A stretch of 5,626 nucleotides of DNA. It comes from Candidatus Saccharimonadota bacterium (lineage in GTDB: Bacteria > Pseudomonadota > Gammaproteobacteria > Enterobacterales > Enterobacteriaceae). The notes beneath the pieces are model-generated. The model did no database searches, was not told where the DNA came from, and worked only from the letters and a program-made list of their open reading frames with translations. The stretch spans positions 265,550 to 271,175 of the forward strand of contig CP024013.1 in the NCBI GenBank assembly GCA_002688505.1, in the 5' to 3' direction. This document shows, piece after piece, positions 1,376-5,626 of the stretch. The position numbers and the translations under genes were made by a program. The first letter of the stretch is position 1, and each line of letters opens with the position of its first letter.

Positions 1376-2245
1376 ATGACATTAAATAAATTGAATATCA
1401 AATTTTTAAAAAAAAAAATAAATGCTAAAAAAAATATTGATTCTATGAGTGCTTTAGAAAGTAATTCTATAGGATATATTACTAGTATTTTAGCTTGCGC
1501 TTCAATACCTCATTCTAAAATAGAAAAAAGTTATTTTAAAAGAAGTAATGGAAAAACATCTTTAAAAATTATTTCAGATCCTGAATATGGTTTACCATAT
1601 GGTGTTGTGCCTAGAATATTAATGATTTGATTATGTACAGAAGTAAAGTTTAAAAAATCAAATATTATATATTTAGGAAAAAATCAAAATGAATTTATTA
1701 AAAAATTAGGAATCATACCTACAGGCGGAGTTAATGGATCTATAGCTAGAATAAAAAAACAAGTTACAAGATTATTTCATTCTACTATATCTCTTAGTGA
1801 CAATAGAAAAAATTCACATAAATTTATAAATTTAACAATAGTAGATAATGGTATTATTTGAAATAATCAAAAAAAAAGAATAGATTGAAATAATAAAATT
1901 ATTTTATCAAAAAAATTCTTTAGTAAAATTAATTCTACTTCTCTTCCTATTGATCTTAGAGTTATACGTGTACTTAGATCCCCATTGGCTATAGATATAT
2001 ATATATGATTAACTTGAAGATCAAGAATGGTTAAAAAAGGAGATAGTGTTTTAATTTCTTGAGAGAAATTAAAATTACAATTTGGTTCTAATTATTGTAA
2101 TTCTATTAAAGGTCTTCATAATTTCAAAAGAGAATTTTTGAAACAATTGAAAATTGTTTGTTTCCTTTATTCGCAAATAAATATTGAAGTACTTAATTGT
2201 GGTTTAAAAATAAATTATAGTAATTCTCATATTCCTTCATATTAA
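1376..2245 (+). CDS. repA: Plasmid replication initiator, RepA_C family (plasmid-encoded RepA), 289 aa under code 4
   Basis: The frame is continuous from ATG 1376 to TAA 2243..2245 if six in-frame TGA codons (1628, 1859, 1886, 2006, 2015, 2060) are read as Trp. No TAA/TAG occurs in frame (checked codon by codon). The translation carries the family-typical string GLPYGVVPRILMIWLCTEV..S..I.LG.NQNEFIKKLGI.PTGG.NGSI.R.K.Q..RLF...I plus LPIDLRVIRVLR-SPLAIDIYIWLTWR and ISWEKLKLQFG.NY. The recoded TGAs fall where this family has conserved Trp (IYxWLxxR). Confidence 0.9.
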
Positions 2246-2258
2246 TTTTAGTTTTTTA

Positions 2259-2271
2259 TTTTTTTTTTTTT
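2259..2271. repeat. Homopolymer T13 tract just downstream of the repA stop
   Basis: Read directly: gttttttaTTTTTTTTTTTTTattag. It is the longest homopolymer I noted in the window. Confidence 0.9.
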
Positions 2272-2293
2272 ATTAGAAAAAATTTCTTTTGTT

Positions 2294-2355
2294 TTATTAT
2301 ATATATATGTTATTATATATATGTGTATTATTATATACATGTATATTATACATGT
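2294..2355 (+). repeat. Four imperfect tandem direct repeats (core TATTATATA[T/C]ATGT), iteron-like; candidate RepA-binding or origin element
   Basis: Read directly: TTATTATATATATATGT (2294..2310), TATTATATATATGT (2311..2324), TATTATATACATGT (2329..2342), TATATTATACATGT (2342..2355). Period is about 13-18 bp. It includes the 10-bp palindrome ATACATGTAT (2336..2345). It lies in the largest non-coding stretch, directly after repA. Confidence 0.45.
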
Positions 2356-2506
2356 TTAAAACAATATTTTTATTAAATATAATAAATAAATAAAAGGCTA
2401 ATATGTTAGGGAGATTGTAATTATTTATTAATTAGTCAATAGTTTATTCATTTTGATATAGTATTTATTTGTACATATCTATAATTTATTTATTATTAAA
2501 TTATTG

Positions 2507-2535
2507 AATTTAAATTAATAAATTTAATTTAAATT
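2507..2535. repeat. 12-bp perfect inverted repeat (aatttaaattaa / ttaatttaaatt) with a 5-nt spacer
   Basis: Read directly: 2507..2518 is the reverse complement of 2524..2535. It is all A/T, so its statistical weight is modest. Confidence 0.3.
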
Positions 2536-2629
2536 GTATTTAATTTTTGTATAATTTTTTTAAGATTTTAAATATATTTTTAAAATTATTTTTAATCTAA
2601 AATTTTAGTTAACATAAAAGTTAATTTAT

Positions 2630-2634
2630 AGGTG
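2630..2634 (+). promoter_or_regulatory. Shine-Dalgarno-like ribosome-binding site (AGGTG) for the polygalacturonase gene
   Basis: AGGTG lies 4 nt upstream of ATG 2639 and matches the 3' half of the canonical AAGGAGGTG. G-rich pentamers are rare in this sequence, and none of the other three genes has one. Confidence 0.6.
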
Positions 2635-2638
2635 TTTT

Positions 2639-2719
2639 ATGATAAAAAATGTTCGTTTATATATAACAAATTTATTTTGTATATTAAGTTTAGTTTTAGG
2701 TTTAAATACATCTTTTGCT
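2639..2719 (+). other. Sec-type signal peptide of the polygalacturonase (predicted cleavage after SFA, before SGDT)
   Basis: MIKNVRLYITNLFCILSLVLGLNTSFA|SG has a basic n-region (K3, R6), a hydrophobic core, and a small-x-small (S-F-A) cleavage motif. It aligns with the PehA signal peptide end (SAWA|SDS) from memory. The four Cys positions corresponding to the two PehA disulfides are retained (ESC...DYC, KKC...NGC). Confidence 0.75.
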
Positions 2720-3904
2720 TCAGGAGATACAAGAAATGTAAAAGAACCTTCTATACCTGAAAGTTGTGTAACTTTAAAAGCTAATAATAAGAATTTGACT
2801 ACAACTATACAAAATCAATTAGATTATTGTGCATCTTTTAAAAAAGTTGTAAAATTAGATTTATCTAATAATAAAAATTTTCATTTTTATTCAGGGCCAT
2901 TAAATATTCCATCACACGGTGGATTATTAATTAGTAAAGGTGTTGTTTTATCAGCTATACCTGATCCTTTATTGTATGATACAGGTAATAAAAAATGTGG
3001 TACTATAGATAATAATGGAAATGGATGTAAACCTTTTATAAATGTTAAAAATACTGAAAATAGTGGTATATATGGTGAAGGTACTATAGATGGACAAGGT
3101 AATTCTATTATAAAAGGAACTAAAAAAACTTGGTGAAATTTATCTAGTGAAGCTCAAAAATTAAATAAATCACAAAATGTACCTAGATTAATAGAAATTA
3201 GAAATTCAAAGAATTTTACTATTTATAAAATTTCTTTAAAAAATTCACCTAATTTTCATGTAGCTATGGGTAATGTTAATGGTTTTACTGCATGAAATGT
3301 AAAAATTAATACTCCTGCTGATGCTCGTAATACTGATGGAATAGATCCTGGATCTTCAACTAATATTACTATAGCTCATTCATATATAAGTACTGGAGAT
3401 GATAATATAGCTATTAAAGCTGGTAATGGTCCTACATCTCATGTATCTATATTAAATAACTTTTTTGGTAAAGGTCATGGAATGTCTATAGGTAGTGAAA
3501 CTTCAGGATCAGTAACAGATGTAATTGTAGATAATTTAACAATGGATGGTACTACTAATGGATTACATATAAAAAGTAGTAAAGCAAATGGTGGTTTAGT
3601 TAGTAATATTACATATAAAAATGTTTGTATAAAAAATGTACAATACCCAATTTTATTGGATATGTTCTATCAAAAAATTAATAAAGGAAATAAAATTCCT
3701 CAATTTAAAAATATACATTTTGATAATGTAAAAATATTAACTCCTGGTAAATTTATTTTTAAAGGTCTTAAAGATAATAATATACAAGTTACATTTAATA
3801 ATGTAAGTATTAAGAAAGGATCTGTAATAGAAGAAGAATATTTAACTAAGACAGGTTCAATGAATGAAAATTCTACAGGTAATATTTGTCCTAATTATCA
3901 ATAG
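2639..3904 (+). CDS. pehA: GH28 endo-polygalacturonase (pectinase), PehA-like, 421 aa under code 4
   Basis: The ORF-track fragments 2639..3136 and 3482..3904 share one frame. They join into a continuous frame when TGA 3134 and TGA 3293 are read as Trp, with no in-frame TAA/TAG until TAG 3902..3904. All four GH28 signature motifs are present in order: ARNTDGIDPG, STGDDNIAIK, GKGHGMSIGSE, and NGLHIKS (RIK motif with R>H). The sequence is collinear with Pectobacterium PehA as I recall it: SGDTRNVKEPSIPESCVTLKA vs SDSRTVSEPKTPSSCTTLKA; TWWNL vs SWWEL; NVPRLIEIRNSKNFTIYKISLKNSPNFHV vs NTPRLIQINKSKNFTLYNVSLINSPNFHV; GFTAWN vs GFTAWK. Both recoded TGAs align to PehA Trp residues. Confidence 0.95.
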
Positions 3905-3910
3905 TTTTTT

Positions 3911-3950
3911 AATTATAATTTAACCTATATATATAGGTTAAATTATAATT
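3911..3950. terminator. Perfect 40-bp palindrome (20+20) between the two pectinase genes; hairpin that is a candidate intrinsic terminator, attenuator or RNA-processing site
   Basis: Read directly: aattataatttaacctatat (3911..3930) is the exact reverse complement of atataggttaaattataatt (3931..3950). It begins 7 nt after the polygalacturonase stop and is followed by ttatatattt. It ends 21 nt before the lyase ATG. Confidence 0.55.
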
Positions 3951-3971
3951 TTATATATTTATGTTATTATT

Positions 3972-5624
3972 ATGAATAAACAAGATATTAAATTAGAAAT
4001 TAATGGTTTAAATTTAATTATTAAAAATAAATTTTTTAAAGTTTATATATATAATTCATATGTTATTAAAATTTTAGTAGATAATGTAAACTTAATAAAT
4101 AATTTAAATGGTAAAAAAACATTTTATTTAGATTGAAATGGCGGTAAATTTATATTTAAACCTAAAAATTTATTTGTATTAAAATATTCAAATAATATTA
4201 TACATGTAATGTATAATATGTTTTTATATGATAAATGTGAGATACAATATCACTATATTTTTAAAAATAATTTATTTGGAATATATAATTATGTAGTTAT
4301 TAATAATTTAAATATAAATATTTCATATAAATTTAGTGAAATAAGAACTGTATATCGCTTTGATTATGAAATAATGAATATGTTATATAATGGTTTATTA
4401 ATACATAAATCATATCTTTATAATTTTTTAAATAAACAAATATTAGTTCAAGATGAAACATGACAATTAAAAGATGGAACTTATTATTCTAAATATGACT
4501 TAGCTGGTTATATAAGAGATACTAATTTTTATGGTATTTATGGTAATAAATATGGTGCTTGAATTATGAATTTTAGTAATGAATATTTTTCAGGAGGTCC
4601 TTTAAAACAAGATTTATTAGTACATCAAGATTCTTTAATTTTAAATTACTTAAATAGTACTCATTTTGGTACTAAAGAATTAATTATACCTAAATATAAA
4701 TGATCTAAAATGTACGGTCCTTGATTAATTTATTTTAATAAAGGTAAAGATATTAATTTAATTTCAGATGCAAATATGTTTTTTAATATCGAAAAAAATA
4801 ATTGACCTTTTAATTGAATAAATGATAAAAATTATCCAATTATAAGATCTACATTAAAAGGTAAATTAAAAAATGTAAAAAATTTATATAAAATTGTTTT
4901 ATGTTCTTCTATTAATGAAGAATTCGATTTTCAAACTTTAGGTTATTTATACAATACAAATTCATTAAATGATGGAACTTTTATAATAAAAAATATTAGA
5001 CCTAATATTTATAATTTATATATATATCCTATAAATGGATATGACTGTAATTTTTTATTTAAAAAAAAAATAAATATTAAATATAATTTGAATTTAGGAA
5101 TATTAGATATAAATGAAAATTTACTAAATAAAAAATTAATTTGAAATATTGGAGAAACAAATCGTAAATCAGATAAATTTAAATATAGTAGTAAAAATAG
5201 AAATTATATTTGACATACATTAGTACCTTCAAATATAAATTTTTATATTTATAAAAAAAATAATATTAAAAAAAATTGATATTATGCTCAAACTAAAAGA
5301 GGTAAATGAAATATATATTTTTACGATAAAATAGATAATAAAAATAGAATACTAAATATAGGTATATCAGGAGTTAGTTCTAATATTTTAGAAAAAAATA
5401 TTAATAAACCTAAATTAGAAATATATTTAAATAATATTTTATTAAATGTACTTTCATATGAAAATGATAAATCAATATATAGAGGTGCTTTAAATAGTGG
5501 TAATTTTTATAGTAAAAAAATATTTATATCAAAAAAATTAATAATAAATAATATAAATATTTTAACACTTAAATTACTAAGTGGATCTTTTATGTATGAT
5601 ACAATAAATTATTTATATGAATAA
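3972..5624 (+). CDS. PL4-family rhamnogalacturonan lyase (RG-I endolyase, RhiE-like), 550 aa under code 4, no signal peptide
   Basis: I checked all 551 codons from ATG 3972 to TAA 5622..5624. There are 11 in-frame TGA codons (4134, 4461, 4560, 4701, 4722, 4803, 4815, 5142, 5211, 5277, 5307) and no TAA/TAG. The ORF-track fragment 4209..4463 is an internal piece. The translation shows PL4-like blocks: YFSGGPLKQDL (cf. SSGGPFHRDI in Aspergillus RGL4), LNYLNSTHFGT, WSKMYGPWLIYFNKG, a mid-domain FIIKNIRPNIYNLYIY (fn3-like), and WNIGETNRKSDKF (cf. IGEWDG). The C-terminal jelly-roll ends SIYRGALNSG...LLSGSFMYDTINYLYE (cf. ...MYDY.RLE). Confidence 0.88.
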
Positions 5625-5626
5625 AA
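5550..5626. repeat. Terminal direct repeat, copy 2 (circular-assembly overlap)
   Basis: Identical to 1..77. Removing one copy gives a 5549-bp circle. Confidence 0.93.

Follow-up and report, generated by a model that had tools for sequence, protein, structure and literature searches.

The gammaproteobacterium Stammera, an extracellular symbiont of cassidine leaf beetles, has a genome of ∼0.27 Mb. Its departure from the standard genetic code has been in print since 2017: its sequences are annotated with code 4 "as described by Salem et al" (Salem 2017), and UGA was later inferred as W for Stammera by Codetta (2021). A published survey lists prfB as absent from Stammera, with a trnW that reads UGG and with UGA in 62% of CDS. 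The Stammera tRNA-Trp(CCA) has a normal 5-bp anticodon stem, and tRNA-Trp(UCA), which is common but not universal in code 4 lineages, is reported absent from all Stammera genomes. According to a 2026 preprint (gTranslate), a basal Stammera clade uses code 11 and is reported to retain prfB; the same preprint describes prfB as lost in most Stammera strains, yet present in some code 4 assemblies. Because such assemblies still contain prfB, loss of RF2 may not be universal in Stammera. Stammera genomes reportedly do not pass GTDB quality control. Published work already covers the altered code, the absence of prfB, the CCA anticodon, and the basal clade with the standard code; the finding confirmed here is correct, not new.

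Plasmid Identity and Gene Content

The DNA analyzed here (the window, 5,626 nt) is almost certainly the complete circular pectinase plasmid of a strain of the leaf-beetle symbiont Candidatus Stammera capleta, and this symbiont uses genetic code 4, with UGA read as tryptophan; the two statements are made jointly and with very high confidence. The final 77 nt of the window (5550 to 5626, unstranded) are an exact copy of positions 1 to 77. The window is thus circular, the overlap having been left by the assembly of a circle, and the plasmid measures 5,549 bp. All 33 plasmid records that match it by nucleotide sequence are from Candidatus Stammera capleta (Enterobacterales). The similarity spans the whole plasmid, with three Stammera records covering 99 to 100% of the window at 83.5 to 85.3% identity, and no record in the plasmid collection searched is at least 90% identical to it. 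Run SRR6147586 yielded a 2,013-nt contig that matches part of the window exactly. The related records are circular and 4.6 to 6.9 kb in size; PLSDB holds them without features, and their gene models were rebuilt from table 4 ORFs.

The plasmid is a small circular replicon of the kind that carries RepA and a GH28 enzyme with or without a PL4 lyase. On the forward strand lie repA (1376 to 2245; 289 aa under table 4; Pfam RepA_C, E = 3.4e-24; stop TAA), a GH28 polygalacturonase gene (2639 to 3904; 421 aa; Pfam Glyco_hydro_28, E = 5e-65; stop TAG), and a PL4 rhamnogalacturonan lyase gene (3972 to 5624; 550 aa; stop TAA). The lyase assignment draws on PL4 domain III (E = 1.9e-14), with domain II scoring below the Pfam gathering cutoff (E = 3.3e-4). 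The catalytic motifs of the polygalacturonase (NTD, GDD, and GHG) are all intact. The fourth gene, on the reverse strand (60 to 1247; 395 aa; stop TAA), encodes a Xan_ur_permease-like membrane protein (PF00860, E = 3.9e-14), and its ORF is intact in seven related loci (L001 to L007). It has a GC content of 8.2%, within the 8 to 25% range of the plasmid's genes, and contains no Trp codon of either kind; it is therefore uninformative on the meaning of TGA, yet consistent with TGA not being a stop.

At the protein level, sequences identical to RepA and to the lyase are present in the database, while no exact match is listed for the polygalacturonase (best, 91%). The nearest named bacterial proteins outside Stammera come from Enterobacterales and other Proteobacteria (Acerihabitans, Donaciinae symbionts, Klebsiella, Dickeya, Pectobacterium, and a Xanthomonas RepA), and insect-encoded homologs are just as close. 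No Rfam family matched the window at E values of up to 1, and a search of the window for tRNA genes returned none. No direct-repeat family (iterons) was found 3' of repA. Tandem Repeats Finder reported a unit of 16 to 18 nt in ∼3.3 copies at 2294 to 2350, a weak lead, as such arrays are common in DNA this AT-rich.

In-Frame TGA Codons and Stop Usage

Of the 20 Trp codons in repA and the two pectinase genes under code 4, 19 are TGA. Six lie in repA (1628, 1859, 1886, 2006, 2015, and 2060), two in the polygalacturonase gene (3134 and 3293), and 11 in the lyase gene (4134, 4461, 4560, 4701, 4722, 4803, 4815, 5142, 5211, 5277, and 5307). The only TGG is at 3131 in the polygalacturonase gene; repA and the lyase gene have none. 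These counts are exactly those of the first-pass annotation, which had also stated that no TAA or TAG interrupts the three frames; indeed, none occurs upstream of the real stops in 1,260 codons. The other two frames of the same genes each contain 26 to 88 TAA/TAG codons, an off-frame frequency of 10 to 14%. Calculated from these off-frame frequencies, the log10 probability of a TAA/TAG-free frame is −13.6 for repA, −23.4 for the polygalacturonase gene, and −35.6 for the lyase gene.

UGA does not terminate any gene of the window or of a 21-kb piece of chromosome from a different Stammera strain, which surrounds an integrated polygalacturonase gene (locus L012). All four window genes end in TAA or TAG, as do all 17 genes of the chromosome piece, which include gyrA, gyrB, tyrS, eno, and rplS and together hold 41 in-frame TGA codons and 1 TGG. 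That piece carries tRNA-Asn, tRNA-Ser, tRNA-Met, and tRNA-Val; neither tRNA-Trp nor prfB was found in it. A practical consequence had been anticipated in the first-pass annotation, namely, that standard-code gene callers would shred the plasmid. Table 11 splits the three genes into ORFs of 84, 165, 140, 54, 84, and 45 aa. Annotation of this contig needs translation table 4; with the standard table, repA and both pectinase genes would be annotated as fragments or pseudogenes.

TGA Positions in Homologs and among Strains

Each of the three proteins was aligned with 81 to 88 homologs, all from outside the Stammera group, and the residues facing each TGA were tabulated. In-frame UGA aligns with the Trp of standard-code homologs: 16 of the 19 TGA columns are majority Trp, and the other 3 are aromatic (F/Y/W). 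Wherever at least 70% of the aligned residues are Trp, the query codon is TGA or TGG (hypergeometric P = 1.1e-29). In repA, the columns at 1859, 2006, and 2060 are Trp in 81/81 homologs, and the column at 1886 is Trp in 57/81. All three Trp codons of the polygalacturonase gene (3131, 3134, and 3293) fall in columns that are Trp in 88/88 homologs. The TGG-TGA pair at 3131 to 3136 (forward strand) therefore encodes the invariant WW of GH28, as had been proposed. In the lyase gene, 10 of the 11 TGA codons occupy columns that are 88 to 100% Trp (81 homologs).

The earlier claim that the TGAs sit at conserved Trp positions holds for the 16 majority-Trp columns and is to be qualified at 3 mixed aromatic ones. 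These are 1628 in repA (49 F and 29 W in 81 homologs), 2015 in repA (74 Y and 5 W of 81), and 4134 in the lyase gene (47 Y and 23 W of 81). The codon at 2015 encodes the second W of the IWLTW motif, a position that is mainly Tyr in homologs. From the alignments, these three TGAs taken alone would not discriminate Trp from another aromatic residue.

Comparison among Stammera strains gives the same reading of UGA. An initial comparison covered 10 Stammera plasmids, 9 of them with the lyase gene; of the 179 codons homologous to window TGAs, 176 are TGA or TGG, and the codon totals from 9 further Stammera loci agree. Across these 19 plasmids or loci, a given Trp codon may be TGA in one and TGG in another, as expected of synonyms, while full-length frames and catalytic motifs are conserved between strains. 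The homolog columns, the TGA/TGG interchange, and the lack of any gene ending in TGA together bear out the assignment of UGA to Trp made in the first-pass annotation, and no feature of the window speaks against it.

Alternative Explanations

The pectinase genes and repA could instead be pseudogenes on a decaying plasmid, their TGAs being real nonsense mutations. The short table 11 products (45 to 165 aa) and the extreme AT-richness, as in degrading symbiont DNA, are what such decay would leave. Decay would have produced TAA and TAG as well, however, and the three frames hold none, nor would it place TGAs on Trp columns (P about 1e-29) or conserve full-length frames and catalytic motifs across strains. 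The alignment results refute this explanation, whose probability we regard as negligible. UGA might also specify another amino acid, either selenocysteine through a SECIS element or glycine as in code 25, since UGA is the codon reassigned in both systems. All 19 columns are Trp or another aromatic residue, though; Gly is not among the six commonest residues of any TGA column, and Cys occurs in just one column, where 1 of 81 sequences has it. In addition, the window has no Rfam match and hence no known SECIS element, and between strains TGA swaps specifically with TGG. The alignments and the Rfam scan thus speak against selenocysteine recoding, and the columns against code 25, and we consider either fainter still in probability than decay. 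Mollicutes, the classic code 4 group, typically pair that code with very low GC, and the contig might instead come from Mycoplasmatales or Entomoplasmatales. This is the least probable of the explanations weighed here and is refuted by the nucleotide matches, all 33 of which are to Stammera; the nearest named proteins outside Stammera likewise point to Enterobacterales and other Proteobacteria, and neither the genes nor the DNA show affiliation with Mycoplasmatota. The first-pass annotation, which had favored a reduced proteobacterial symbiont over a mollicute, was right on this point.

A subtler alternative, very unlikely in our view although less so than those above, is a transitional state in which UGA is still a stop recognized by RF2 and is partially read through by tRNA-Trp(CCA), with full-length protein a minority product. 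A leaky state of this kind has reportedly been proposed for the leech symbiont Providencia siddallii. It would accord with the presence in Stammera of a CCA-anticodon tRNA-Trp alone, with the reported retention of prfB in some code 4 assemblies, and with the preferential keeping of the cognate TGG in the polygalacturonase gene, which suggests that decoding of UGA is costly. Against it, TGA makes up 95% of the Trp codons of the three genes, with 11 in a single 550-codon gene, and hardly any full-length product would remain if each were only partly read through. Moreover, no gene ends in TGA (4/4 in the window and 17/17 in the chromosome piece end otherwise), and prfB is reported absent from the reference Stammera genome and most strains. 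Full reassignment of UGA to Trp is accordingly the reading we retain.

Proposed Route of Reassignment and Retention of TGG

Reassignment could have proceeded as follows, taking the loss of prfB from the literature. A chromosome without prfB would no longer support termination at UGA, since RF1 is limited to UAA and UAG. UGA could then be read without competition by the near-cognate tRNA-Trp(CCA), presumably with C34 mismatched to the A in the third position of the codon, and strong AT-biased mutation would turn nearly all TGG codons into TGA. The first-pass annotation had suggested looking for a tRNA-Trp with a UCA anticodon; that search would come back negative, because Stammera reportedly keeps only tRNA-Trp(CCA).

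Conversion to TGA is uneven among the plasmid genes. Conserved Trp codons are kept as TGG at 54% in Stammera polygalacturonase genes versus ∼6% in repA and the lyase gene. Among 20 Stammera polygalacturonase genes, 19 have TGG as the first codon of the WW pair and 15 have TGA as the second. In the 21-kb chromosome piece, the lone TGG among 42 Trp codons is again the first WW codon of the polygalacturonase gene (window position 3131). This pattern of TGG retention may be new. We considered avoidance of tandem UGA-UGA as the cause of TGG at 3131 and rejected it; TGA-TGA pairs occur at other Stammera loci, in a GH67 gene and a 270-aa ORF, and also in the polygalacturonase gene of locus L020. Tentatively, and with appreciable doubt, we suggest that UGA is the costlier Trp codon where the only tRNA-Trp is CCA, and that selection keeps UGG at key sites of the polygalacturonase, which we take to be the only pectinase gene that every strain has. 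If so, UGG/UGA usage would report the efficiency with which CCA reads UGA, the unexplained step of the Stammera reassignment.

Comparison with Known Systems

The closest relatives of the window are the Stammera plasmids CP043979.1 (from Cassida vibex), CP144844.1, and CP043974.1 (from Cassida viridis). They share its set and order of genes (repA, GH28, PL4, and permease-like), its circular form and size of ∼5.5 kb, and TGA at the same Trp codons. The window represents a different strain, in which a few Trp codons have TGA in place of TGG or the reverse (e.g., at nt 1628 and 3293), and it adds a clean, fully verified example of code 4. A contrasting case is CP144772.1, a 6.6-kb plasmid with homologous repA, polygalacturonase, and lyase genes plus GH67. 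Its four genes use TGG for all 39 Trp codons and have no in-frame TGA. CP144772.1 probably belongs to the basal code 11 Stammera lineage, which represents the state before reassignment; an all-TGG related lineage fits a reassignment within the Stammera symbiont group.

Among symbionts outside this group, Candidatus Zinderia insecticola, a betaproteobacterial spittlebug symbiont, is alike in its tiny, extremely AT-rich genome, its use of UGA for Trp, its loss of prfB, and its tRNA-Trp(CCA). Zinderia belongs to a different class and arrived at this code independently; its example indicates that tRNA-Trp(UCA) is not required in code 4 lineages. The Zinderia tRNA-Trp(CCA) has a 4-bp anticodon stem, proposed to aid the reading of UGA. 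The corresponding stem in Stammera is the normal 5 bp, so this proposed aid would not account for decoding in Stammera. Candidatus Hodgkinia cicadicola and Candidatus Nasuia deltocephalinicola are also reduced insect symbionts that read UGA as Trp and are without prfB, but in both the tRNA-Trp anticodon has changed to UCA, whereas that of Stammera is unchanged. Stammera represents one of the small number of UGA-to-Trp reassignments that arose independently in Proteobacteria and is among the few that keep the CCA anticodon, which makes it useful for asking how UGA is decoded without RF2.

Gene content and layout of the plasmid

Under the standard bacterial code, positions 1376 to 5624 yielded only ORF fragments (84, 165, 140, 54, 84, and 45 amino acids). 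Under table 4, in which UGA is Trp, the same stretch held three long frames of 289, 421, and 550 amino acids, counted from ATG. All lie on the forward strand and were assigned by Pfam as repA (1376 to 2245; RepA_C, E = 3.4e-24), a glycosyl hydrolase family 28 (GH28) polygalacturonase (2639 to 3904; E = 5e-65), and a polysaccharide lyase family 4 (PL4) rhamnogalacturonan lyase (3972 to 5624; domain III, E = 1.9e-14). Lyase domain II scored below the Pfam gathering cutoff (E = 3.3e-4). Bases 1 to 77 exactly duplicate bases 5550 to 5626; thus, the window represents a 5,549-bp circle, and the duplicate is a circular-assembly artifact.

GC content ranged from 7 to 27% in 500-nt windows. On the reverse strand, positions 60 to 1247 encode a permease-like protein of 395 amino acids that matches nearly the full length of the xanthine/uracil permease family profile (PF00860; E = 3.9e-14). 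This gene has 8.2% GC and no Trp codons, and few recognizable genes are as AT rich; the ORF is intact in seven related plasmids (355 to 423 amino acids, 7 to 12% GC). Its end at position 60 overlaps the convergent lyase gene by 16 nt, the lyase stop (5622 to 5624) corresponding to 73 to 75 on the circle. The spacer separating the polygalacturonase gene (stop at 3904) from the lyase gene (start at 3972) contains a hairpin at 3911 to 3950 (-17.3 kcal/mol; z = -5.25 versus shuffles), with a perfect 18-bp stem and a 4-nt loop, followed by a U-rich stretch. The hairpin probably acts as an intrinsic terminator or stabilizes the mRNA. Directly 3' of repA, within the intergenic region at 2246 to 2638, approximately 3.3 tandem copies of a 16- to 18-nt unit (TTATTATATATATGTATA; 81 to 85% matches) occupy 2294 to 2350. 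The array is a candidate for iterons or an origin, but comparable low-complexity arrays are frequent in DNA this AT rich, and a repeat search of the window returned no direct-repeat family.

TGA is a sense codon at tryptophan positions

In-frame TGA codons number six in repA, two in the polygalacturonase gene, and 11 in the lyase gene. The only TGG is in the polygalacturonase gene (3131, with a TGA adjoining at 3134). A codon recount of the three genes reproduced the TGA and TGG totals of the first-pass annotation exactly, and TGA replaces TGG at 19/20 Trp sites. The genes end at TAA (repA and lyase) or TAG (polygalacturonase). Their 1,260 codons include no in-frame TAA or TAG, while the other two frames carry 26 to 88 apiece. 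Based on off-frame TAA/TAG frequencies of 10 to 14%, the chance of such open frames is 10^-13.6 for repA, 10^-23.4 for the polygalacturonase, and 10^-35.6 for the lyase. The TGA frequency in repA and the lyase gene is similar in frame and off frame (about 2%), so the codon is not depleted in the way expected of a stop. Across these genes, TGA acts as sense at Trp positions and ends none of them.

The encoded residue was assessed by aligning the table 4 proteins with homologs outside the Stammera group (polygalacturonase, n = 88; RepA, n = 81; lyase, n = 81). All three polygalacturonase Trp codons fell in columns with Trp in 88/88 homologs. Among RepA columns, those at nt 1859, 2006, and 2060 were Trp in 81/81 homologs and that at nt 1886 in 57/81; two were mixed (nt 1628, Phe 49 and Trp 29; nt 2015, Tyr 74 and Trp 5). 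Ten lyase TGAs occupied 88 to 100% Trp columns, and the remaining one (nt 4134) was mixed (Tyr 47 and Trp 23). Conversely, wherever at least 70% of homologs have Trp, the window has TGA or TGG. The first-pass annotation had placed the TGAs at conserved Trp positions; indeed, 16/19 lie in the 21 majority-Trp columns among the 1,260 positions (hypergeometric P = 1.1e-29). The motifs that it cited, TWW, FTAW, and IYIW, were borne out, except that the last W of IWLTW aligns with an aromatic column, not a Trp one.

Pseudogenization of the three genes is excluded by the absence of in-frame TAA/TAG, by the position of the TGAs on Trp columns, and by the intact polygalacturonase catalytic motifs (NTD, GDD, and GHG). 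A transitional state with UGA as a leaky stop, of the kind proposed for Providencia siddallii, is very unlikely given 11 TGAs in one gene alone and no TGA-terminated gene. Code 25 and selenocysteine were ruled out because none of the 19 TGA sites is a Gly or Cys column and an Rfam scan of the window returned no matches.

A mollicute origin, which the first-pass annotation had dismissed, is likewise excluded, as all 33 megablast matches to plasmid records were to Candidatus Stammera capleta (Enterobacterales). Three records covered 99 to 100% of the window at 83.5 to 85.3% identity: CP043979 (Cassida vibex), CP144844, and CP043974 (Cassida viridis). Run SRR6147586 yields an assembled 2,013-nt contig whose sequence is identical to a portion of the window. 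Taken together, these matches identify the window as a Stammera pectinase plasmid, from a strain whose nearest relatives are the Stammera of Cassida beetles. According to published accounts, the Stammera of Cassida rubiginosa is streamlined toward a polygalacturonase and a rhamnogalacturonan lyase, and plasmids of 2.5 to 9 kb carry these host-beneficial genes.

The code across Stammera

Table 4 gene models were rebuilt in the 10 plasmids fetched first, nine of which contain the lyase. Codons homologous to the window TGAs were TGA or TGG in 176/179 cases, with single sites switching between the two among strains. Codon totals in nine further loci (eight plasmids and one chromosome piece) agree with this interchange. 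Plasmid pStScsp1 (CP144772.1; 20% GC) has 0 TGA and 39 TGG codons in four genes (repA, polygalacturonase, rhamnogalacturonan lyase, and GH67), which represents the pre-reassignment state. The plasmid is probably a member of the basal clade reported to retain code 11 and prfB (release factor 2 [RF2]), whose discovery in 2026 refined the Stammera code picture (gTranslate preprint).

A 21-kb chromosome piece of another strain (CP144768.1) contains 41 in-frame TGAs and one TGG in 17 genes, including gyrA, gyrB, tyrS, eno, rplS, and rpsP, and all 17 stop at TAA or TAG. Thus, the code is organism-wide and not a plasmid peculiarity.

TGG retention in the polygalacturonase gene

Outside the polygalacturonase gene, cognate TGG has almost disappeared. 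Across 19 TGA-using Stammera strains, which are not phylogenetically independent, TGG occurs at 31/57 (54%) of the conserved Trp codons of this gene, compared with 7/106 in repA and 7/119 in the lyase gene (both ~6%). In 19/20 strains, TGG encodes the leading residue of the GH28 WW pair (3131 to 3133), and this site also holds the sole TGG among the 42 Trp codons of the 21-kb CP144768.1 piece. Avoidance of tandem UGA-UGA was rejected as the cause, as TGA-TGA pairs exist elsewhere. Given the CCA anticodon of the tRNA-Trp, selection may instead have favored the cognate codon in the polygalacturonase gene; with strains that share ancestry, this is no more than a lead. Separately, His (CAT) replaces Arg in the substrate-binding "RIK" motif (3560 to 3577; residues 308 to 313, GLHIKS). 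Arg occupies this position in 86/88 homologs; within Stammera, the 10 closest strains also have His, and nine others keep Arg.

Decoding and comparison with known reassignments

The window contains no tRNA genes; thus, the plasmid relies on the chromosome for decoding. In the literature, Stammera is listed without prfB, with a CCA anticodon in trnW (tRNA-Trp), and with UGA in 62% of coding sequences (table 2). tRNA-Trp(UCA) is reported in no Stammera genome, and prfB is still present in a few code 4 assemblies. The search for a UCA anticodon proposed by the first-pass annotation would therefore come out negative, leaving the code change unrefuted. With RF2 gone, UGA could be read by the near-cognate tRNA-Trp(CCA) without competition, and AT-biased mutation would next turn TGG into TGA.

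The UGA-to-Trp reading of the window is correct and already known: Salem et al. reported it for Stammera in 2017, code 4 is routine in Stammera annotation, and Codetta likewise infers UGA as Trp. In CP144768.1, the polygalacturonase and a GH67 alpha-glucuronidase (positions 10001 to 14135 of the piece) lie in the 268-kb chromosome, flanked by truA and eno, and not on a plasmid, in line with the account of plasmid integration given by the Paleocene-origin preprint. The reassignment itself has been compared in the literature with those of Hodgkinia, Zinderia, and Nasuia; the tRNA-Trp(CCA) of Stammera has a normal 5-bp anticodon stem, in contrast to the 4-bp variant of Zinderia.
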